NCBI GenBank assembly: GCA_002898235.1
Contig: BEIL01000004.1
Span: 499 to 64,498 of the forward strand
Direction of reading: 5' to 3'
DNA from: a bacterium HR35
GTDB lineage: Bacteria; Patescibacteriota; Minisyncoccia; UBA6257; HR35
Length of the DNA stretch: 64,000 bases
Position numbers and translations under genes: made by a program. Positions 1 through 34,404 of this stretch are shown in pieces (the stretch's first letter is position 1; every line of letters begins with the position of its first letter). Below the pieces are notes generated by a model that saw only the letters and a list, made by a program, of their open reading frames with translations, had not been told where the DNA came from and searched no databases.

Positions 1-227
1 TTTTTAACAAGATGTGGTTTTAAGCAATAAATATAAAGTTTATAATTTTTACTTCTTCTTAGAAATCCATTAACTTTAAGTTCAGATAACAAATTTCTAA
101 AAGCATCATTGTCTAATTCAAATTCAAATACAGAATATTGTACTCTCTCGCCATATTTTTCTAAAATTCTTACTAATCTATTTCTAATTTTATTTTCGGA
201 TATATCATAAGATATTATATATCTCAT
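1..227 (-). CDS. cas2: CRISPR-associated endoribonuclease Cas2, N-terminal part only; the gene runs off the window start
   Basis: The reverse strand from the ATG at 225-227 translates MRYIISYDISENKIRNRLVRILEKYGERVQYSVFEFELDNDAFRNLL..., matching the Cas2 N-terminal signature (YDIS...R..v.k.L..yG.RVQySVFEc). There is a 4-nt ATGA start/stop overlap with the cas1 stop. It is absent from the ORF track because the window edge truncates it. Confidence 0.8.
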   Translation of the reverse strand, partial: MRYIISYDISENKIRNRLVRILEKYGERVQYSVFEFELDNDAFRNLLSELKVNGFLRRSKNYKLYIYCLKPHLVK

Positions 228-1204
228 ATTGAACCTCTCATGTTTAATGGGACATAATTTTCTAATTCTCCAATAAGAGTTTTTGCAAGTATTCTTATTT
301 GATATAAAGATAATTCGTTTAATGTTAGTTTCTCTTTAAATTGTTTTATATAGAATTGTTTTTTATACCACCAGTCTAACCATTCCTTAATAAAAAATGC
401 TCTCGGCTTTTTCTTTAAAAAATAAACACCGTAATAATTTTCAAAATCTTCTTTTTTTATCCTTCTATTATTAATAAGATTAAGTACTAATTTATCCACT
501 GCAATTGGTCTGAATTCTTCCATCATATCAAGAGCTAATGACGGTCTTCTGTAGTTTATTTCATGATAAAAACCCATAAAGGGATCTAGGCCAACTAATA
601 AAATATTAGTTATTATTTTTGATACTAATAAAACATAGCCATAACTTAATAAAGAATTTATTTCATCTCTAGGAGGATTTTTCGTTCTATGAATAAAATT
701 AAAATCTTTGTTTTTTATTATTGAAGCAAACTTTAACCAATAAGATTGGGCAATTGTTCCCTCAATGCCTAAAATACTATTTTTTGAATATAACCCATTT
801 AATTCAACTTCTGGTAAATTTGCTTTTTTATCAATAGATTTCAAAACCCAAAGTTGGCTATTTCTTTTACCCATAACTATAGCCTTGGAGAAATTTAAAA
901 CAAAATTTAAATCTAATCTTTTTTTATATTGTGATTCTCTTAAAAAAATATTTTTACTGTTACCACTAAAATATGATCCATAATATTTGCCGTTTTTATT
1001 TATAAAGTAAATAGGTATTTTTAATTTAGAACACAGCTTCAAAAAACTAGGCTTTATATTATTATCTATATGCAAAATAATATCCTGAATTAAATTTGAT
1101 GGTAAAGTTTTTATTAAATCTTTTTTATTATAAATTCTAAATTGAAAATTATTTGCCGCAACTGTTTTATCTTTTTCCAAAATAACTAAAGTTTTTTTAT
1201 CCAT
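224..1204 (-). CDS. cas1: CRISPR-associated integrase Cas1
   Basis: The 326-aa product contains GLDPFMGFYHEINYRRPSLALDMMEEFRP, the conserved Cas1 active-site block (GLDP..G.lH....gR.SL..DlME.FR). It lies between cas4 and cas2 on the same strand. Confidence 0.9.
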   Translation of the reverse strand: MDKKTLVILEKDKTVAANNFQFRIYNKKDLIKTLPSNLIQDIILHIDNNIKPSFLKLCSKLKIPIYFINKNGKYYGSYFSGNSKNIFLRESQYKKRLDLNFVLNFSKAIVMGKRNSQLWVLKSIDKKANLPEVELNGLYSKNSILGIEGTIAQSYWLKFASIIKNKDFNFIHRTKNPPRDEINSLLSYGYVLLVSKIITNILLVGLDPFMGFYHEINYRRPSLALDMMEEFRPIAVDKLVLNLINNRRIKKEDFENYYGVYFLKKKPRAFFIKEWLDWWYKKQFYIKQFKEKLTLNELSLYQIRILAKTLIGELENYVPLNMRGSI

Positions 1205-1223
1205 TTTTAATATTATCTTTAAG

Positions 1224-1814
1224 TTAATGATAAATCATCGAAGGTATACTGTCTACATAAAAGTAAGAACATCCCTTTTTCTTACATCCGTTTATTTTAT
1301 TATTAAAATCAATATTTTTTATTAATTCTCTAAATTCATTAATTTTTTTAACGGCATAATCTTTCAGAAATTTATTGATTATTACTTTTTTTCTTTTGTT
1401 AATTTTGTAAAAATATATATAACCAAAATCAATTTCTTTTTTTAGCATCTCTTCTAGACATAGAGACTGTAAGGTTAATTGTATTTTATGGAAAAAGTTT
1501 ATTCGTGGGTAACCAGCTTTATATTCAATAGGGATTGTTAAGTTTTTATTGACTTCAACTAAATCACAAAAACCAAAAATTTTATATTTGTGATTAAAAA
1601 CTAACATATTCTTCAATTGTTTCTTATTTTCTCTATATTTGATGTTAATCTTATTTAAATTCTTATGATACAATGAACCTTCATATAAAAAAATATTATT
1701 ATCATCATTTTCCCAACCTAAAAGCATATATAATCCTGCTTTAGGACAATAACAGTATTCTGCTATTGTTTTTATTGGCAAATAATTATCTACAAAAAAT
1801 TTAATTTCTAACAT
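1224..1814 (-). CDS. cas4: Cas4 RecB-family exonuclease. The track ORF 1224..1859 begins at a TTG, and the likely true start is the ATG at 1812-1814 (MLEIKFFVDNYL...).
   Basis: It has an N-terminal Cys cluster (CYCPK), a DLVE motif, an EYK (ExK) nuclease motif, and a C-terminal GCKKKGC cysteine pair, which is the usual Cas4 layout of one N-terminal and three C-terminal Cys plus RecB motifs II/III. The 45-nt upstream extension of the track ORF is a GC hairpin, which is unlikely to be coding. Confidence 0.75.
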   Translation of the reverse strand: MLEIKFFVDNYLPIKTIAEYCYCPKAGLYMLLGWENDDNNIFLYEGSLYHKNLNKINIKYRENKKQLKNMLVFNHKYKIFGFCDLVEVNKNLTIPIEYKAGYPRINFFHKIQLTLQSLCLEEMLKKEIDFGYIYFYKINKRKKVIINKFLKDYAVKKINEFRELIKNIDFNNKINGCKKKGCSYFYVDSIPSMIYH

Positions 1815-1827
1815 TTTAATCCGAAAT

Positions 1828-1857
1828 GAAAACCCCGCCTTACGTGGCGAGGTTTTC
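1828..1857 (-). terminator. GC-rich hairpin immediately upstream of the cas4 ATG. It is either an intrinsic terminator/attenuator between effector and adaptation genes, or part of a small RNA.
   Basis: On the minus strand it reads gaaaacctcgcc-acgtaa-ggcggggttttc, then atttcgg. That is an 11-12 bp stem with one mismatch and a 6-nt loop, followed by a U-rich tract. It sits between the effector stop (2032) and cas4. Confidence 0.45.
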
Positions 1858-1890
1858 AACCTTCCTTTTACAATCTATACTCTTTTTGCA

Positions 1891-1967
1891 ACCGGTTTTT
1901 GCCGGTGACCGGTTTTTTGCCGGTGACTGACTGAGGTTGCTAAAACCAAACTAACCCAACCTCAGTC
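1891..1967. repeat. Intergenic structured element: two direct copies of accggttttt(t)gccggtg followed by a perfect 11-bp-stem hairpin (gactgaggttg / caacctcagtc at 1929-1939 and 1957-1967)
   Basis: Read directly from the sequence. It is unusually GC-rich for this genome and lies between the Cas12-like gene and cas4, which makes it a candidate small RNA (for example a tracrRNA-like transcript) or a terminator cluster. Confidence 0.4.
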
Positions 1968-2031
1968 AATCATATTAATTATAGCACAAAAAATATAAAA
2001 AATCAATGCTTGCCTTTTTAATAAAAATTAT

Positions 2032-4488
2032 CTAAAAATCGTACTTTCTTGCTATATTTATTGCTCCAACTACATCCGCCTCTTCTTCATATCCACATTT
2101 TAAACATTTAAATTTATCTCTACTAATTCTGGGAGTAACTGTCTTAAAATATTCTAAGGCTTCTTTTAAATTATTTTGCTCAATTAGTTCTTTAATTTCG
2201 TCTAATTTAATATTTTTAGGATATTTGTTTAAATAACAAACCCAATGTTCTGGTAAATTTATTTGTAAACTACCAATTAAAAATTTTTTATTATCCAAAT
2301 CTATAGATTTTTCTTTTATCAAATTTTCAAATTGTTTTAAAGTTAAACCATCTAATATCTTCCTTTTAATATCTGCATTGAAGTTAAACTCACAATTTGG
2401 ACAAATAATTGATGTATCTTTTGGATCTACAAATTTTAATAAATATTTTTTAGGTAAATTAGCATATTGTAAGGCTAACTCAAGAAACTTTTCAATTTTT
2501 CTATAAACCCGCTTAGCAATAATTTTTTCTTCTTTGCCAAATCCTTTTCTTAAATTTTCCATAACAATTATTGCTGGATAATTACTTAAAATTTTTAAAA
2601 TTTTAGAAATGGATTGATGAAGAATAGTTTCTTGCGTTCTTAAAATCCTATTGCCTATTTTTTTCTTCTTTCTTTTTTTATGTAATTCTTCAAGTTTTTC
2701 AGCAAATTCTTTACCTAAAATGCCTTTTTCATTTCCAACCACCTTTTTGTCTTTATCTAAAACCGCATAAGCAATTGGATATTTCTCTCCCCTATCAATC
2801 CCTAAAACATAACTAATTTTATTTTTTATACTATCTTCAATAATATTGGTTATATCTCCGTTGTATTCAAAGGTAATATCAACATAATATTCAAATTTAT
2901 CACCGGGTTTGTTTTTAACTCTTTTCACTCTGGCGTTAGCAGGAAAAAATTTATTTTTAGATTCGCTTAAAAATCCCCATTCTTTATGAAACAATATTCT
3001 TCTTAAATAAGATTTACCGTGATACAACCAAAAATAACAAGAATAAGGATCTTTATCTTTCTCTAAATGACCTGAGATTAATTTGTATTCTTTGGGTTTT
3101 CTTTGTGATTTTTTTCTAGAACCGCCGGTTAATACAATGAAGTAAAAATCTTTATTATGGTCATTTTTTAAACAAAATGCTTTGGTTGAAATACCTAAAG
3201 TTATTCCTAATTGATGTTTTTCTTTTTGATTATCTTTATCGATTTTTAAAATTAAAGCCCCAGCTTTTAAAGGTTTATTATCTTTCCAACCGAAACCAGA
3301 GATTATAAAAGAGTCTTTAACTGGTTTTCCTTTCAAAAATTCTGCTTTAATTTTGGTTATTTCATTATTTATCTCATTTAAAGTTTCTCCTCTTTTTTCT
3401 TCCGGTAGACTAGAAACATATAAAATCTCGGTTAAGAAAAATAGGGTATTAAAGAATTTATTTCTACCCTGCCAATCAAATGGTTTTTTAAATAAATGCT
3501 TTTTTTGTTTTTCTAATTTATTAAATAAAGCTTTAATTATATTTTCTATGGATTCACTGCTTCTTTTTGTAATATACCAATATAAAAATCTATCTTTCAA
3601 CGCACTTGACTTCTTTTTTCTATATTTTAATTTTTTCAAAAGCTGTTCTCCTTTTTCTTGTAAATATTTAGATATTACGTCCTCCTGCTGTTTAATATCA
3701 ATTCTTTCTTTTTTGAGATTATATCTATCCTCAAAGCTATTAAGTAAGTATTTAAGTCTGTCTTTAAATTCTTCTTTAACTTTTTTAATATTAAATTCTA
3801 AATTATTTCTATTTTTAAAATCATCAAGATTTTGGTATTTTTCTATCAAAGGAAACGAGGGTAGTCTTTTTAAATTAGAGATAGGCCTTTTCTTTTTCAG
3901 ATTTCTTTCTTTATTAATTTCAGCGATAAGAGTATTAAATTCTTCAGTTAAATTTTTTGCTGTTTGCCAGGTCTCATAATTTTGAATACTTAATTTTTTA
4001 TATTCTTCTATTAAACCTTGAATTAAAGTTTTTTCTGAATCGTCTAAATCTTTTCTTTCTAAAATTTTTCCAACTAATCTTTTATTATCATAGAAAGCTT
4101 TTTGCGTATTAGTTACAAAACTATTAAGTACAGATGATATTTCTGTTCTAATTCCTTCTTCAACTTTTGAAGTTAAAATCTTATAGGTATTTTTAAATTT
4201 TTCAAATCTTTTTTTATTTTTATAAATCCAATCATAACCTAATTTTTTGTTAATAAATAAATTTAATTCGCCTGCCTTAAATTCCTCGTATAAATCTTTT
4301 AAATGTAAATATTTTATTTCAGAAATTTCTTCAAACCACTTATCTAAAATTTCTCTATCTTCTCCTTTGGGAAATATTCTAAAAGAAACGGTTCTAGATA
4401 AATTTTTAGGCAACAAGATGGTTTCATAAGCACTTCTTAAATCTTTTATTACTTGAAGAAATTTTATTTTATCTTTATTCTGGGTCAT
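2032..4488 (-). CDS. cas12: Compact type V CRISPR effector of the Cas12 family (818 aa); subtype unassigned
   Basis: RuvC-I is VLGIDRGEKYPIAYAVLD (D565, codon 2794-2796). It is followed by an Arg/Lys-rich bridge-helix-like segment. RuvC-II is AIIVMENLRKGFG (E644). A split zinc ribbon is formed by CPNC (C696/C699) and CLKC (C795/C798). RuvC-III is EADVVGAINIARKYDF (D805). An N-terminal SRTVSFRIFPKGED block resembles the Cas12a WED-I motif (SKTLRFELiPqGKT). The gene sits immediately upstream of cas4-cas1-cas2 on the same strand. Confidence 0.8.
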   Translation of the reverse strand: MTQNKDKIKFLQVIKDLRSAYETILLPKNLSRTVSFRIFPKGEDREILDKWFEEISEIKYLHLKDLYEEFKAGELNLFINKKLGYDWIYKNKKRFEKFKNTYKILTSKVEEGIRTEISSVLNSFVTNTQKAFYDNKRLVGKILERKDLDDSEKTLIQGLIEEYKKLSIQNYETWQTAKNLTEEFNTLIAEINKERNLKKKRPISNLKRLPSFPLIEKYQNLDDFKNRNNLEFNIKKVKEEFKDRLKYLLNSFEDRYNLKKERIDIKQQEDVISKYLQEKGEQLLKKLKYRKKKSSALKDRFLYWYITKRSSESIENIIKALFNKLEKQKKHLFKKPFDWQGRNKFFNTLFFLTEILYVSSLPEEKRGETLNEINNEITKIKAEFLKGKPVKDSFIISGFGWKDNKPLKAGALILKIDKDNQKEKHQLGITLGISTKAFCLKNDHNKDFYFIVLTGGSRKKSQRKPKEYKLISGHLEKDKDPYSCYFWLYHGKSYLRRILFHKEWGFLSESKNKFFPANARVKRVKNKPGDKFEYYVDITFEYNGDITNIIEDSIKNKISYVLGIDRGEKYPIAYAVLDKDKKVVGNEKGILGKEFAEKLEELHKKRKKKKIGNRILRTQETILHQSISKILKILSNYPAIIVMENLRKGFGKEEKIIAKRVYRKIEKFLELALQYANLPKKYLLKFVDPKDTSIICPNCEFNFNADIKRKILDGLTLKQFENLIKEKSIDLDNKKFLIGSLQINLPEHWVCYLNKYPKNIKLDEIKELIEQNNLKEALEYFKTVTPRISRDKFKCLKCGYEEEADVVGAINIARKYDF

Positions 4489-4986
4489 ATATCTTTATTT
4501 TACCAAAAATTTGCTTATTTTATCATAAGATCCTTTATTTAAAATAAAAAAAATTTTAAGATTTTATTTATCGAAACTAAATTTTAATTTAAAATTTACC
4601 TTTTTTAAACTTTACCTAAAACAACTGCGTTGTTTATTTTACTGTTTTTGATAGATTATGAATTATAATAAACTTATGGAGCTTGAAAAGATACATTGTG
4701 TACCGTGTGAGGGAGGGGTGCTGGCGTTGAGTGATGAAAAAGATAGATAAAATTTTAGAGTAAAAACTTTTTTATTTCTCAATTACTTCTTTTAAAACAA
4801 TAGCATTATTGTGGTCAGTATCTTTGGCTGAAAAAAGGAGGGTAAGTGTTTTGTGTTTCTTTTCTAATTTTTTGATTTGATTAATTAAATTTTTCTTCTC
4901 TTTTAGTTCTTGTTTGTATTTCTTTTTGAATTCTTGTATCAATTATTTCTATCAATTTTTAATCCCAGCTATTTTAATTATAAAAT

Positions 4987-6150
4987 TTAATCTCTAAAAG
5001 CTAAATTAAGAAATATTAATGATATCAGAATTAAAAAACCTCCGTAAAGAAAAGCATAAGTAAAATTTAATTTTGTCCAAATTAAACCGCCAATTAAACC
5101 ACCAAAAAGTTGGCCAAAACCATATAAAGAATTTAAAGTACCCTGAGCTGTGGCTAAATATTCTTGAGAAATATTTTTGCCTAAATACACCATTTTTATT
5201 CCATCAATTAAAGCTAAACTTAAAGAAAGCAAAATAATTGCTGGTATGATTAAAAAATTATTAGTAATAGAAAAAATTAAAAAAGATAAAAGAGCAAAAA
5301 TAAATCCAAGTTTTAGCATTAATTTTTCTCCATATTTATCAGCTAATCTGCCAATTGGAAAAGCAAAAATAACAAAGAATAAATTAAAGATAAAATAAAA
5401 AAGAGGCAGTGTTTTTAAACTTGAATCAATTGTTTGAATTCTTAAAAGAATAAGTGAAAGAGGAAAATAGCCTAAAGAAAATAAAAAGAATGAAAATAGA
5501 TAAAGTTTTAAATTTGATGGGAAAATTTTTAAATCGAAGATAAATTTTTTGTTTTTTGAATAATTGTCTTTTTTATCTTCAACAAAAACAAAAGTTAAAA
5601 TTGCTAAAAAACCCAAAACTGAGGCAATTAAAAATAATAATTTGTAATTTAAACCTAAGAAATAATTCAGAAGAATAAAACCAACAAGAGGTCCTAAAAT
5701 TGCTCCAATTGTATCAAAAGCCCTGTGGAAATTGTATGATTTATTTAATTCCTCTTTTTCTGAAGATAAATAAATTAAAGCATCTCGAGGTGCATCACGC
5801 AGACCTTTCCCTACTCTATCTAAAATTCTCAAACCCAAAACTTGCCAAAAACTATTAACTAAATAAAGAAAAAATCTTGTTGAAGCTGAAATTGAATAAC
5901 CAAGAACTGCTAAAATTTTTCTTCGATTAAGATAATCTGCTAATCTGCCTGAAAAAATTTTTAAAATATTATTTAGAGCTTCTGCAAAACCTTCTAAAAA
6001 ACCAACAAACCAAATGGGCGCACCTAAAACTCTGGTTAAAAAAGCAGGCATAACTGAATAAACCATCTCACTTGAAAAATCATTAAACAAACTCACTAAA
6101 CTTAAATAAAAAACATTTTTATCCACTCCTAAAATTTTCTTTTTATTCAT
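4987..6150 (-). CDS. MFS-family transporter
   Basis: 387 aa with about 12 predicted TM segments and an MFS-like loop GRLADYLNRRK / GRLADKYGEK (two G-R-x-x-D-R/K motifs). Confidence 0.65.
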   Translation of the reverse strand: MNKKKILGVDKNVFYLSLVSLFNDFSSEMVYSVMPAFLTRVLGAPIWFVGFLEGFAEALNNILKIFSGRLADYLNRRKILAVLGYSISASTRFFLYLVNSFWQVLGLRILDRVGKGLRDAPRDALIYLSSEKEELNKSYNFHRAFDTIGAILGPLVGFILLNYFLGLNYKLLFLIASVLGFLAILTFVFVEDKKDNYSKNKKFIFDLKIFPSNLKLYLFSFFLFSLGYFPLSLILLRIQTIDSSLKTLPLFYFIFNLFFVIFAFPIGRLADKYGEKLMLKLGFIFALLSFLIFSITNNFLIIPAIILLSLSLALIDGIKMVYLGKNISQEYLATAQGTLNSLYGFGQLFGGLIGGLIWTKLNFTYAFLYGGFLILISLIFLNLAFRD

Positions 6151-6933: not shown

Positions 6934-6940
6934 CTTTTCT

Positions 6941-7387
6941 GTGTATTCACGGACTTTTTCGGACTTAACACGGACTTTACGGACAACACTGACTCAATCG
7001 GACTGAACACAGACTTATCGGACATGTTCATTTTGTCAGTTCTGTCCGTGTATGGTCCGTGTTCAGTCTGTGTATTCACGGACTTTTTCGGACTTAACAC
7101 GAACTTTACGGACAACACTGACTTAATCGGGCTAGACACAGACTTATCGAATATGTTTATCTTGTCCGTTCTGTCCGTGTATGGTCCGTGTTCAGTCTGT
7201 GTATTCACGGACTTTTTCGGACTTAACACGGACTTTACGGACAACACTGACTTAATCGGACTGGACACTAGCTGTTCGGACTGATTAACCGACCAAATCA
7301 GACTTAATACAGACTAATCGGACTTATCGTTATCTTGTCAGTTCTGTCCGTGTATAGTCCATACCTGTCCGTGTATAGTCCGTGTTA
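6941..7387. repeat. GC-rich tandem repeat: two near-identical 129-bp units (6941-7069, 7070-7198) plus a diverged and extended third unit
   Basis: Direct reading: gtgtattcacggactttttcggacttaacacggactttacggacaacactgac... recurs with a few substitutions. Each unit is built from cggac/gtccg words at roughly 10-20 bp spacing and contains the inverted pair gtccgtg...cacggac. GC content is far above the local background. Confidence 0.85.
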
Positions 7388-8499: not shown

Positions 8500-8625
8500 T
8501 ATAATTGATGCTATTATCCGCGTAAATCAGCGTTATAATAATCAGCGTATCTCAGCATATAAGGAAAATATCCGTATAAATCCGTTTAATAATCCGTGTA
8601 AATCAGTGTTCATATCTCCATAAAT
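8500..8625. promoter_or_regulatory. Cluster of four direct repeats (minus-strand consensus CnGATTTACrCGGAT) lying 60-190 bp upstream of the antitoxin-toxin operon
   Basis: The plus strand reads tatccgcgtaaatcagcgtt / aatcagcgtatctcagcat / atatccgtataaatccgttt / aataatccgtgtaaatcagtgtt. Likely roles are operator or iteron-like binding sites. The half-sites loosely resemble DnaA boxes (TTATCCgcg, aTATCCgta). Confidence 0.35.
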
Positions 8626-14884: not shown

Positions 14885-17002
14885 TCAAATATTTCTCATC
14901 CTCAAAGCATTTAAACTAACAATTATTGTGGATAAGCTCATTAAAATTGCTCCAATTGCTGGAGAAAGAAAAATTCCTTTAAAAGCTAAAATTCCTGCTG
15001 CTAAGGGAATGGCTACAATATTATAACCAGTTGCCCAAAATAGGTTTTCAATCATTTTTTGATAAGTTAGTTTTGAAAGTTTAATTAATTTAACAATATC
15101 TCGAGGATCATTTCTAACTAAAATTATTCCTGCTGATTCAATAGCAACATTTGTTCCAGCACCAATAGAAACTCCAACATTTGCTTGCATCAAAGCTGGA
15201 GCATCATTAATTCCATCGCCAATCATCATAACCTTTAATCCCCTTTGTTGAAGTTCTTTTACTTTGTCAACTTTTTCTTGGGGTAAAACTTCAGCAAAAT
15301 ATTCATCAATTTTCAATTCTTTAGCAACTTTTTCAGCAACTTCTTTTTTATCTCCAGTCATCATCATAACTTTAATTCCTAGTTTATGTAATTCTTCAAT
15401 TGCTTCTTTAGATTCTTCTCTAATTTCATCTTCTAAAATGATAGCTCCCAAAATATTTTTCTCCTGATCAATTAAATAACTAATTGTGCCAATTGTTTCT
15501 ATTTGAGTAGGTTTAATATCTAATTCTTTTAATAAATTATCTCCTCCTAAATAATAAACTTTGCCATTAATTTTTCCTTTTATTCCTTTACCTGGCAAGT
15601 TTTCAAAATCTTCAACTTTTAAAATTTCAATACTTTCTTCTTTTGCTTTTTCTAAAATTCCTTGAGAAATAAAATGAGAAGAATATTGTGAAAGAGAAGC
15701 TGAAATTTGTAAAATAAAATTTTTATCTTCACCAAGTATTTTTTTAACTTTGAATTTTCCCGTTGTAAGAGTGCCTGTTTTATCAAATAAAACAATATTA
15801 ACTTTTCTTGCCAGCTCAAGCTGGGGTCTATTTCTAATTAAAAACCCATTATGAACTGCTAAAGATGTTGAAATAGCAACTACTAAAGGAACAGCAAGCC
15901 CCAAAGCATGAGGACAAGCAATTACTAAAACTGTAACTAACCTTTCTAAAGCAAAAGCAAAATCTTTTTGTAAAATTAGCCAAATAATAAAACTTAAAGA
16001 ACCAACACCAAGAGCAATAAAAGTCAAATATTTAGCAAAAACATCTGCTAAAACTTGAAGTTTTGATTTTGATTTTTGTGCTTCTTGGATTAATCTTTTT
16101 ATTCCTGCTAAAAATGTTTCTTCGCCAATTTTTGTTACTTTAATTTTTAAAATTCCGTCGCCATTAATTGTTCCAGCAATAACCTCAGAGCCGACTTCTT
16201 TTAAAACAGGTTTACTTTCACCAGTAATCATACTTTCATTAACTTCTGATCTTCCTTCAATCACTATTCCATCAACTGGAATTTTTCCTCCTGGACGGAC
16301 TAAAACAATATCTCCAACTTTTAATTCATTTAAAGAAACTAATCTACCATTTTCTAATTCAGCTACATCAGGTAATAATTTTTCTATTTCTTGTAAAGCT
16401 CTTTGAGCCGAAGAGATTGACTTCATTTCAAAATAATGACCTAAAAGCATAATAGTGATTAAAGAAGCGAGTTCCCCAAAAAAATTAGATCCACGCAGAT
16501 CAACGCAGAACGAACGCAGAACTACGCAGAAAATATTATTTAAAGTTATGTAAAGACTATAAATGTAAGCTGAAGTGATAGCTAAAGAAATTAAAGTCAT
16601 CATTCCAGGATTTTTTGCTTTTATTTCTCTATAAGCACCAACAAGAAAAACCCAACCACCATAAAAGAAAACAATCGAAGAAAAAATTAAAACTAGCGCA
16701 GACTTAAGCAGACTGAACGCAGACCATTGCAGACCAAAAATATTTAAGTTAAAAAAATCAAAAGAAAGAAAAATAACAAAGATTGTCAGGATTAAACAGA
16801 GCCAAAATTTTTTAAGAAAATCCTCTGCGCGATGCCCATGATGTTTATCTAAATACTCTTTATGTTCTGTATGTTTTGCGTCAGTTCTGTGAGTTCTGCG
16901 TTCTTCTTCTATCTTAACAAGTTTCATCCCACAAACAGGACAATTTCCAGGTTCATCTTGCGGATCGATACAACCCATTGGGCAAATATACTTTTTCACC
17001 AT
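14885..17002 (-). CDS. copA: Copper-translocating P1B-type ATPase
   Basis: 705 aa. It has an N-terminal CPVCGM/CxxC metal-binding site and a His-rich stretch, the CPH transmembrane motif (IACPHALGLAVP), the DKTGTLT phosphorylation site, GDGINDAP, and MTGD. Confidence 0.85.
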   Translation of the reverse strand: MVKKYICPMGCIDPQDEPGNCPVCGMKLVKIEEERRTHRTDAKHTEHKEYLDKHHGHRAEDFLKKFWLCLILTIFVIFLSFDFFNLNIFGLQWSAFSLLKSALVLIFSSIVFFYGGWVFLVGAYREIKAKNPGMMTLISLAITSAYIYSLYITLNNIFCVVLRSFCVDLRGSNFFGELASLITIMLLGHYFEMKSISSAQRALQEIEKLLPDVAELENGRLVSLNELKVGDIVLVRPGGKIPVDGIVIEGRSEVNESMITGESKPVLKEVGSEVIAGTINGDGILKIKVTKIGEETFLAGIKRLIQEAQKSKSKLQVLADVFAKYLTFIALGVGSLSFIIWLILQKDFAFALERLVTVLVIACPHALGLAVPLVVAISTSLAVHNGFLIRNRPQLELARKVNIVLFDKTGTLTTGKFKVKKILGEDKNFILQISASLSQYSSHFISQGILEKAKEESIEILKVEDFENLPGKGIKGKINGKVYYLGGDNLLKELDIKPTQIETIGTISYLIDQEKNILGAIILEDEIREESKEAIEELHKLGIKVMMMTGDKKEVAEKVAKELKIDEYFAEVLPQEKVDKVKELQQRGLKVMMIGDGINDAPALMQANVGVSIGAGTNVAIESAGIILVRNDPRDIVKLIKLSKLTYQKMIENLFWATGYNIVAIPLAAGILAFKGIFLSPAIGAILMSLSTIIVSLNALRMRNI

Positions 17003-32451: not shown

Positions 32452-34404
32452 ATGTCAGAAGAATTTAAACCAGGAGGGTTTTTAAAGAAAAGATATTGGG
32501 GATTTGAAGATTTTAGAAATGCGGTAGCAAGAGCAAGTAAAAGAAAAATAGGTAAAATTCTTCCTAAGCCTGAGGAGCAAATTCCTCATTATATTCAAAG
32601 GATTATAGATATTTTAAAAAAAGAAAGGGGCAAGGAATTATTTAAAAAACAAATACTTTATAAAAGATTTATTATTAAACCCGAAAGGATACCAGAAGAC
32701 TATTTTAAAAATGTTTTATTAGGCAATTTTGCTGAAAGATTAGGATATACAAGAGAACAATTAAAAGATCCCCAAATTAGACAAGCTGTAATTAAGCTAT
32801 TTGAAGAGCGAACAGGTCAATCTTTTGAAACTTATCAAATTCCAAAAGAAGAAAAAGAACAATTAATCCAACAAATAATTGAAGATCAAAAAAGAAGTTT
32901 AGATAGATGGTTTGATTATTTAACTTCTCCTGAGGCTGAAAATTATCCTCCTGAATTTAGATATTGGGTTTTTGCTGAAGTTTTAGGATGCGGAAATTAT
33001 GATGAAGAAAGAAAAGAATACAATGAGAGAACAAAAACAACAGTTGCTCCTTTTCCTGAACTTAATTCTCAAGCTTTAGCTTTATTAATTAATGAACTTA
33101 TTAGAAAAGAACAAAAAAAACCGTCGGGGTTAATTAATTTAACTGAAGAACAACGAAAAGAATGGCAAAATCTCATTCATTTTTCAAATGGTATTGTTCC
33201 TAGAGTAGCGATAGTTTTTAATAGAGATTTAAATCAAATAACTGAAATAAGAGGAATTGCAAAGGGTCAAAACCTGGATCCATATATTGCTCCTATTGTT
33301 GAAGAAGCTTTAACTGAAGGATTAGAAATAGAAGGAGAAAAAAGAAAACTTGCTGGTTCAGAAAGATATCTCAGGGCAGCTCAAGATATGAGGAGATTAG
33401 CTGAAATTTATATAAAACATTTACAAAAGCAGGAATTAACATCTGAAGAACTAAGATTTTTGTATGAAATAGATAGAGAAATAATAGGATTTGGTTATGA
33501 AAGAGATCCGAGGATAGAAGAAATTTTAAGAGGGCGAGATCTTGAAAAAGATTTAGCTAAAATTTTTGATTGTAGGGAAGATCAAATTGCTTTAGAAGCT
33601 GATAAAGTTACAGATGAAACAGTTGTTTTATGGGGAGATTTTACTTCTAAAATAGCACAAACGTGGACGAAGTTTCCTAATAATTTAAAATTTATCAGAG
33701 GAGATGCTGATTTTAGAAATTCACAAGTAGAAGATTTAGGGAATTTAAGAAGAATAGGTGGAAATGCTTATTTGGGAAATTCAAGAATTAAAACATTAAA
33801 AAATCTAGAAGAAATTGGGGGGTATGTTTATTTTGCAAATTCACAAGTAGAAGATTTAGGGAATTTAAGAAGAATAGGAAGATCTGTCACTTTTGTGAAT
33901 TCAAGAATCACAACACTAAACAATCTAGAAGAAATTGGAGAAGATGTTGATTTTAGAAATTCACAAGTAAAAGATTTGGGGAATTTAAGAAGAATAAGAG
34001 GGTCTGTTATTTTTGCGAATTCAAAAATCACGACATTGAAAAATTTAGAAGAAATTGGGGGATATGCTAATTTTAGAAATTCACAAGTAGAAGATTTGGG
34101 GAATTTAAGAAGAATAATGGGGGATGCTATTTTTACGAATTCAATAATTAAAACATTAAACAATTTAGAAGAAATTGGGGGATATGCTGGTTTTGAAAAT
34201 TCACAAGTAGAAGATTTAGGGAATTTAAGAAGAATAGGGTGGAACGCTTATTTTGGAAATGCACCAATAAAGAATTTAGGTAGGTTAGAAGAAATAGGTG
34301 GAAGCTGTTATGTAAGTAAAGAAAACCAAGAATTGATAAAATTATTAGAAGAAAGGGGCTTTGGCAATAAAATAATAATATACACAATAAAATATACACA
34401 ATAA
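32452..34404 (+). CDS. Large protein with an N-terminal domain of unknown function and at least 8 C-terminal BspA-type leucine-rich repeats
   Basis: 650 aa. The C-terminal 23-aa repeats follow the pattern F.NSQVEDLGNLRRIGG.A.F / .NS.I.TL.NLEEIGG.V.F. Confidence 0.6.
   Translation: MSEEFKPGGFLKKRYWGFEDFRNAVARASKRKIGKILPKPEEQIPHYIQRIIDILKKERGKELFKKQILYKRFIIKPERIPEDYFKNVLLGNFAERLGYTREQLKDPQIRQAVIKLFEERTGQSFETYQIPKEEKEQLIQQIIEDQKRSLDRWFDYLTSPEAENYPPEFRYWVFAEVLGCGNYDEERKEYNERTKTTVAPFPELNSQALALLINELIRKEQKKPSGLINLTEEQRKEWQNLIHFSNGIVPRVAIVFNRDLNQITEIRGIAKGQNLDPYIAPIVEEALTEGLEIEGEKRKLAGSERYLRAAQDMRRLAEIYIKHLQKQELTSEELRFLYEIDREIIGFGYERDPRIEEILRGRDLEKDLAKIFDCREDQIALEADKVTDETVVLWGDFTSKIAQTWTKFPNNLKFIRGDADFRNSQVEDLGNLRRIGGNAYLGNSRIKTLKNLEEIGGYVYFANSQVEDLGNLRRIGRSVTFVNSRITTLNNLEEIGEDVDFRNSQVKDLGNLRRIRGSVIFANSKITTLKNLEEIGGYANFRNSQVEDLGNLRRIMGDAIFTNSIIKTLNNLEEIGGYAGFENSQVEDLGNLRRIGWNAYFGNAPIKNLGRLEEIGGSCYVSKENQELIKLLEERGFGNKIIIYTIKYTQ
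33690..34270 (+). repeat. Intragenic near-identical tandem DNA repeats (138-bp period made of two 69-bp sub-units) encoding the LRR units
   Basis: aattcacaagtagaagatttagggaatttaagaagaata... recurs about 5 times with only a few substitutions. Confidence 0.8.

Follow-up and report, generated by a model that had tools for sequence, protein, structure and literature searches.

The left end of the 64,000-nt stretch of HR35 DNA analysed here (the window) carries a CRISPR-Cas locus in which an unusual sequence separates the effector gene from cas4, and the question is what that sequence encodes. An earlier note on this DNA had described a GC-rich repeat/hairpin element downstream of a miniature 'Cas12-like' effector. 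It left the choice between a tracrRNA-like small RNA and a terminator cluster of the kind that would simply end the effector transcript in a Cas12a locus. We find that the locus is a Cas12e locus and that the gap holds a structured, conserved element whose anti-repeat co-evolves with the CRISPR repeat. The minus strand from 1971 to about 1822 is very probably the tracrRNA gene of a type V-E Cas12e/CasX system in the Patescibacteria-like bacterium HR35.

The effector and the gap behind it

The effector is Cas12e/CasX and not Cas12a. The 818-aa protein matches the NCBIfam equivalog model NF045604 (cas_Cas12e_CasX) over its full length with 792 bits (cut-off 200; E = 8.4e-238), which gives the 'Cas12-like' description a specific family. 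Pfam finds RuvC_1 and a Cas12f1-like TNB domain in it, and its PDB matches are Cas12e/CasX chains only (dVemCas12e, dPlmCasX, DpbCasX and dLesCas12e). An NCBI entry from 'bacterium HR35' matches the effector encoded in the window with 100% identity and carries the annotation 'Cpf1'. This label is a misannotation, since the protein fits the Cas12e equivalog model, the repeat is unstructured and a covarying anti-repeat is present. A tracrRNA is known to be needed in the Cas12e family. The public name 'transposase' on a relative 44% identical to the HR35 protein (L003:10001-12589) is also wrong; by the NCBIfam equivalog model that protein is Cas12e/CasX.

On the other side of cas12e, in an otherwise AT-rich intergenic stretch upstream of the gene, a 24-codon plus-strand ORF at 4676-4750 (MELEKIHCVPCEGGVLALSDEKDR, then a stop) overlaps a G+C-rich patch at 4697-4735. 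Its CxPC...GG..L motif resembles the N-terminus of pterin-4a-carbinolamine dehydratase-like proteins, and the ORF may be the remnant of a gene at the border of the CRISPR-Cas locus.

The gap between the effector stop codon (2032-2034) and the cas4 ATG (1814) measures 217 nt. The 172 bp given in the earlier note derives from a TTG-extended ORF starting at 1859. We rejected that cas4 start, which would place the terminator hairpin inside the gene; homologues and Pfam support the ATG at 1814. The core of the element (1827-1972) is 45.9% G+C against 27.4% for the window and lies at the 99.7th percentile of all segments of 146 nt. The note had proposed folding the region, and the 150-nt RNA of the minus strand folds at -62.3 kcal/mol (z = -7.6), with none of 200 shuffles as stable. 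A search of positions 1-6000 against Rfam at permissive thresholds gave sub-threshold chance matches only, and no curated family covers the RNA.

All features of the element are meaningful on the minus strand, which is the sense strand of the cas genes (Table 1). A plus-strand reading was rejected: the only terminator-like site on that strand (1901-1913) is a by-product of the CCGG repeat, and no promoter or anti-repeat logic fits. Apart from the gap length, every sequence feature listed in the note is present. The two direct CCGG copies, ACCGGTTTTT(T)GCCGGTG, were recovered at 1891-1927 by TRF (period 18, 2.1 copies, score 67) and by the repeat search; they are the mini-hairpins P2a and P2b. 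The perfect 11-bp hairpin, with arms at 1929-1939 and 1957-1967 and a 17-nt loop, grows to 15 bp and is P1. The second hairpin has arms at 1827-1839 and 1846-1858 and a 6-nt loop, and is the terminator of Table 1.

The core stem of this terminator is CCUCGCC-ACGUAA-GGCGGGG, and it is followed on the minus strand by the U-tract UUUUCAUUU, which runs to about 1820. A G+C-rich hairpin with a U-tract directly behind it on the transcribed strand is the form of a Rho-independent terminator, and it is kept in all seven loci compared below. A strict terminator scan did not list this minus-strand site at 1827-1858, probably since the first U run is taken up into the maximal stem, so that the tail window keeps fewer than five U. 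Terminator scans of this simple type should therefore be used with caution as negative evidence.

Two further parts of the element were missed in the earlier reading, the promoter (2006-1978) and the anti-repeat (1857-1882), the latter because the array lies beyond the window. In HR35, 6-7 nt separate the end of the -10 box of the putative promoter from the base at which the P1 stem begins. A TTGAC(T/A)...TATAAT-like pair stands at an equal distance upstream of the 5' hairpin in L002, L003, L004, L007 and L008. Matches to the sigma-70-like consensus as such are no commoner than in shuffles (31 found against 38 expected).

Table 1. Genes and predicted RNA features of the cas12e-cas4 region (window coordinates)
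Feature	Position	Strand	Basis or remark
cas12e (casX), 818 aa	2032..4488	minus	Effector, upstream of the GC-rich element
cas4, 196 aa	1224..1814	minus	Pfam Cas_Cas4 and TIGR00372
cas1, 326 aa	224..1204	minus	Pfam Cas_Cas1, 242.6 bits
cas2, first 75 of 93 codons inside the window	1..227	minus	Pfam CRISPR_Cas2
Putative promoter, sigma-70-like: TTGATT, 17 nt, TGcTATAAT (extended -10)	1978..2006	minus	10 of 12 consensus matches plus TG motif
Predicted tracrRNA, about 150 nt	1822..1971	minus	5' end inferred from -10 box, 3' end from terminator
P1, 15-bp 5' hairpin with one G-U, GGUUAGUUUGGUUUUAG	1925..1971 (1925-1939 with 1957-1971)	minus	Repeat search, fold
P1 loop, 17 nt	1940-1956	minus	Conserved motif GGUUA...UURGUUUUAG
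P2, two tandem mini-hairpins (P2a 1908-1924, P2b 1891-1906)	1891..1924	minus	TRF; 5-bp stem each (fold)
Junction GCAAAAAGA, between P2 and anti-repeat	1881..1889	minus	Invariant in 6 of 7 loci
Anti-repeat GAGUAUAGAUUGUAAAAGGAAGGUUG, 26 nt	1857..1882	minus	Complementary to L001:5122-5147
Intrinsic terminator	1820..1858 (stem 1858-1846 with 1839-1827)	minus	Repeat search; fold

The CRISPR repeat and its complement

There is no CRISPR array within the 64-kb window; the leader and the array lie beyond its left end. They were approached through a Logan contig (L001) that is identical to window positions 4928-1, with 0 mismatches in 4928 nt, and extends 219 nt further. In the extension, the end of cas2 with its stop codon is followed by an AT-rich leader containing TGgTATAAT and, up to the end of the contig, by GTCCAACCTTCCTTTTACAACCTATGCTC. 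We take this end to be CRISPR repeat because the relatives L002, L003 and L007 carry arrays with such repeats. Directly after a homologous leader, L002 has 11 copies of GTTCAACCCTCCTTTTACAATCCATGCTCACTAAAAC, and the arrays of L003 and L007 consist of other 37-nt repeats with the common end CACTAAAAC. For HR35 itself, L001:5119-5147 is seen and the last 8 nt are taken from the relatives, with the contig ending inside the first repeat; the 37-nt repeat is thus predicted as GTCCAACCTTCCTTTTACAACCTATGCTCACTAAAAC.

Read on the minus strand, 1882-1857 is GAGTATAGATTGTAAAAGGAAGGTTG, which reverse-complements the final 26 nt of L001. The earlier note had suggested looking for an anti-repeat once the array was recovered, and this segment pairs with the first repeat at 25 of 26 positions: against L001:5122-5147 there are 24 Watson-Crick pairs, one G-U pair and one C-A opposition. 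The duplex has an energy of -37.4 kcal/mol (RNAduplex). The segment is the only match in the 64 kb with up to 3 mismatches, where 0 are expected, and it shares its strand with the cas genes, the leader promoter and the array.

Alone, the repeats are unstructured (fold 0 to -0.3 kcal/mol) and therefore have no hairpin of the Cas12a type. The option that the gap is simply a Cas12a-style terminator position accordingly falls away, the effector being Cas12e and its repeats lacking such a hairpin.

A second tracrRNA, whether at the site canonical for CasX or upstream of cas12e, was considered and rejected. In the leader between cas2 and the array, the usual CasX tracrRNA site, there was no anti-repeat in four loci (-6 to -19 kcal/mol). 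Sequence upstream of cas12e reached at most -20 kcal/mol against the repeat, which we judged to be chance pairing of a G-rich patch. After the last array repeat of L007, at L007:5795-5835, there is an inverted degenerate copy of the repeat, GTTTTAGTGAAACGATGTTGCAGAAAGAGAA, whose predicted duplex with a repeat, at -29.8 kcal/mol, includes the whole conserved tail. Another anti-repeat-like element and a hairpin closing the array are both possible readings of it, and no such copy was seen after the L002 array.

The window also contains repeats of other kinds. At 6938-7385 there is a 129-nt tandem repeat (2.6 copies, 93% match, TRF score 592) made up of numerous short CGGACTT / GTCCGTG motifs in either orientation, and smaller arrays of similar short motifs occur at 8570-8609, 16493-16531 and 16697-16901, amid a run of small minus-strand ORFs. 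The pattern resembles a cluster of iterons or binding sites in a mobile element or origin. A further tandem repeat at 33700-34302 (60/120-nt period, about 10 copies, 65-83% match) is probably repeat-domain coding sequence.

Related loci, covariation and expression

Six further loci were compared with the window: L002, L003 (the same contig as L006), L004, L005, L007 and L008. Searches for homologous proteins returned the same six proteins from the single protein and from a 6-sequence profile, and a search of genome contigs added L007; a protein scan of metagenome contigs gave no further relatives. The Cas12e proteins of the six loci are 42-66% identical to that of the window, L002 being the closest at 66%. 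As far as the contigs reach, the order in all six is cas12e, a gap of 180-250 nt, cas4, cas1, cas2, leader and array; the contig of L008 ends within the gap. The same element is found in the gap of every one of these relatives, giving seven loci with the window. On the sense strand it consists in series of a 5' hairpin, a variable hairpin, a junction of the GCAAAAAGA type, a complement of the locus's own repeat, and a G+C-rich hairpin with a U-tract. L007 is the only one of the seven in which the junction deviates, reading GUAAAAAGA. The junction ends in GA, two bases that pair with a conserved UC in the repeat.

The anti-repeat co-evolves with its own repeat in the related loci. The repeat is readable in five of the six relatives, so that with HR35 six loci enter this comparison. 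Cognate tracrRNA:repeat duplexes have energies of -34 to -42 kcal/mol, as against mostly -9 to -24 for non-cognate combinations. Aligned without gaps from the conserved junction, anti-repeat and repeat pair at 22-23 of 24 positions in each of the six loci, and 18 of the 24 show two or more standard pair types.

The intramolecular stems behave in the same way. Over P1, P2 and the terminator in the seven loci, pairing is found in 92% of cells and compensatory changes in 16 of 22 pairs. This level was reached in 0 of 500 shuffles, and sliding the partners by 1-3 columns left 32-55% paired. Compensatory changes affect six of the eight modelled pairs of the P1 stem across the seven loci, five of six in P2 and four of seven in the terminator hairpin. 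A covariance model built from the seven sequences (R1) scores its members at 97-111 bits and the window element at 108.9 bits; elsewhere it finds nothing above 17.1 bits in the 64-kb window and nothing above 25 bits in the window or the other loci. A DNA motif scan of metagenomes (GGTTA..GTTTTAG..GYAAAAAGA) gave at least 120 stretches, and none of the 80 listed exceeds 20 bits with R1; the matches listed are due to chance.

The P2 site is the variable part of the element. L008 has a single, near-identical copy of the mini-hairpin, CACCAGCAAAAACTGGTTG; L003, L004, L005 and L007 have one hairpin of different sequence, and L002 has a longer, differently sequenced structured segment. Because L008 has one copy and the other loci have unrelated structures, the two copies in HR35 are a lineage-specific tandem duplication of a variable stem.

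These comparisons bear on two explanations that give the element no guide-RNA role. The first is that it is a terminator cluster only, which ends the cas12e mRNA as in Cas12a loci. The hairpin with its U-tract at 1858-1820 is a genuine terminator type, and without a terminator before the element the cas12e transcripts must end there or read through. A terminator, however, needs no 26-nt complement of the repeat that covaries with it in six loci, and a conserved promoter of its own and conserved loop and junction motifs would be superfluous for it; the effector, moreover, is Cas12e rather than Cas12a, with repeats that have no Cas12a-type hairpin. As the sole explanation a terminator cluster is ruled out by the anti-repeat covariation, and we regard it as very improbable. 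What the earlier note saw as a terminator is right for the last 30 nt, which end the tracrRNA, and wrong for the rest of the element. Its alternative of a tracrRNA-like small RNA is borne out by the complementarity of the anti-repeat, kept with compensatory changes in five related loci, and the covariation that it proposed to seek in related contigs is found both within P1, P2 and the terminator and between anti-repeat and repeat.

The second explanation would make 1857-1882 a decayed, inverted solo CRISPR repeat that a rearrangement left without function next to unrelated hairpins. Inverted degenerate repeats do occur near arrays, as the copy in L007 described above illustrates. Decay, though, is inconsistent with 92-96% pairing to repeats that have diverged to about 50% identity between loci, nor would a relic hold a fixed position between conserved structured modules in seven loci. 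This explanation is contradicted by the covariation, and we give it practically no credence.

How the RNA and the adaptation genes are expressed is a separate matter. There is no terminator between the cas12e stop codon and the element. The distance from the terminator to cas4 is 12 nt in HR35 (1814-1826) and about 33 nt in L002 (L002:2880-2912), which leaves no room for a promoter. Since cas12e has no terminator of its own and cas4 has no room for a promoter in HR35 and L002, the tracrRNA terminator probably also ends the cas12e mRNA and limits read-through into cas4-cas1-cas2. Some members of the clade may thus express their adaptation genes by reading through the terminator.

With the same facts the RNA could instead be a 3' UTR of cas12e, a 5' leader of cas4-cas1-cas2, or both, from which the tracrRNA is processed out while the terminator acts as an attenuator for the adaptation-gene mRNA. 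The absence of a terminator between cas12e and the element and the short distances before cas4 speak for such an arrangement, as does its apparent variability: in L005 and L007 a promoter-like TTGAC...TATAGT/TATTAT pair follows the terminator. A well-placed promoter-like pair, on the other hand, precedes P1 in most loci, and we consider the processed form unlikely. It is compatible with the tracrRNA reading, as it concerns the origin of the RNA and an added role for it, and not its identity.

Predicted guide RNA architecture and known systems

As a tracrRNA gene, the element would work as follows. Transcription would begin at its own sigma-70-like promoter directly after the cas12e stop and would end at the intrinsic terminator, as the sequence signals suggest. 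Complementarity and covariation indicate that the 26-nt anti-repeat would pair with positions 4-29 of each 37-nt repeat, and this duplex would be the counterpart of the 'extended stem' in CasX guides. The anti-repeat stops short of the final 8-10 nt of the repeat, UCACUAAAAC, which are conserved in the clade. The invariant repeat end CUAAAAC has a complement, GUUUUAG, in the P1 loop of 5 of 7 loci (GUUUUG in two). Pairing of the CUAAAAC tail with this loop would form a pseudoknot, since the loop is enclosed by P1 and its partner lies outside; the core may then resemble the pseudoknot/triplex core of known CasX guides. Both sides of this putative pairing are invariant and so show no covariation. 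Between P1 and the anti-repeat would stand the variable P2 hairpin, duplicated in HR35. The dual RNA would be loaded into the 818-aa Cas12e and guide PAM-dependent cleavage of double-stranded DNA. Such guided cleavage has been published with sgRNAs that join the predicted tracrRNA to the crRNA of each ortholog studied, that of HR35 included.

The compact Cas12e would then be guided with a tracrRNA like other CasX proteins, and not by the Cas12a-like self-processing that the name 'Cpf1' implies. The direct repeats would amount to a duplicated and probably dispensable hairpin, which could guide the minimisation of an sgRNA for a small editor. We further speculate that the guide core is rewired with respect to solved CasX guides and that the tracrRNA terminator doubles as a valve for the adaptation genes; taken jointly, this is a tentative and rather doubtful proposal. 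In such a core CUAAAAC would dock in the apical loop of a closed 5' hairpin with the conserved junction alongside, and a scaffold-like P2 would lie outside the 5' hairpin, tolerating duplication.

A tracrRNA in this locus has been known since 2024, and the question of the earlier note is answered there. 'Bacterium HR35 Cas12e (HrbCas12e)' is among six new orthologs described in Nat Commun 2024;15:10727 (PMC11685505). From 100% protein identity we infer that the window carries this HrbCas12e locus. The main text of that paper places the HrbCas12e tracrRNA region between Cas12e and the adaptation module (cas4/cas1/cas2), and, for the Vem, Les, Ckb and Plm2 loci, gives the tracrRNA a site between cas2 and the array. 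There the tracrRNAs were predicted from anti-repeat complementarity and BPROM promoters, and sgRNAs were made of the predicted tracrRNA and the crRNA joined by a UUCG loop. All six orthologs interfered with plasmids in E. coli using an sgRNA, and five of the six recognise T-rich PAMs. Within that main text HrbCas12e is named only in the ortholog list, the sentence on locus architecture and the patent statement, and our literature search found a mention of HrbCas12e in this paper alone. The published tracrRNA and ours thus agree in organism, location and prediction logic (anti-repeat plus promoter), the two being compared by location. With the locus published in 2024 as far as its main text goes, nothing changes for the field. 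What we add is presumably the covariation across six relatives, the layout of P1, P2 and terminator, the finding that P2 is duplicated, and the fact that P1 loop and repeat tail are complementary. For the clade as a whole, the six relatives supply comparative proof of a tracrRNA between cas12e and cas4, with boundaries at the level of the base and a structure supported by covariation. In gene position this differs from canonical CasX, where the tracrRNA lies between cas2 and the array; all seven loci, HR35 among them, have it between cas12e and cas4, a positional variant already known for HrbCas12e.

The guides of Dpb, Plm, Vem and LesCas12e (PDB 6NY1, 7WAY, 8XYC and 8Y2I) are likewise dual RNAs. 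The 'extended stem' of canonical CasX guides, as of the HR35 clade, consists of a long duplex between repeat and anti-repeat. The scaffold stem, which lies 5' of this duplex in the known guides, may have its counterpart in P2 of HR35, where two covariation-supported stems (P1 and P2) precede the anti-repeat. In canonical guides a U-rich 5' part of the tracrRNA holds the conserved A-rich 3' end of the repeat in a pseudoknotted/triplex core, which the tail and loop of HR35 may resemble.

Several differences stand beside these likenesses. The canonical CasX sgRNA has the pairing CUUUG:CAAAG and the repeat tail in Dpb and Plm is ...CAUCAAAG, whereas the tail in the HR35 clade is CACUAAAAC. The order of modules would also differ from the canonical one, in that the tail-binding motif of HR35 appears to lie in the loop of a closed 5' hairpin and the variable stem follows. 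Canonical CasX guides have no sequence similarity to the HR35 RNA: R1 finds members of the clade only, and Rfam has no family for it. HR35 Cas12e is about 160 aa shorter than the Dpb and Plm proteins.

Cas12a (Cpf1) loci likewise have a single RuvC effector followed by cas4-cas1-cas2 and an array. They have no tracrRNA, however, and a repeat with its own 3' hairpin, whereas HR35 has an unstructured repeat and a covarying anti-repeat. The tracrRNAs of type II (Cas9) and type V-B (Cas12b) systems are, like the one predicted here, separate small RNAs encoded beside the effector, with an anti-repeat, a promoter and a Rho-independent terminator, although the effectors are unrelated or only distantly related to HR35 Cas12e. 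In the Cas9 tracrRNA the anti-repeat is 5' and the hairpins are 3', while in HR35 the structured modules are 5' and the anti-repeat lies near the 3' end, as in type V.
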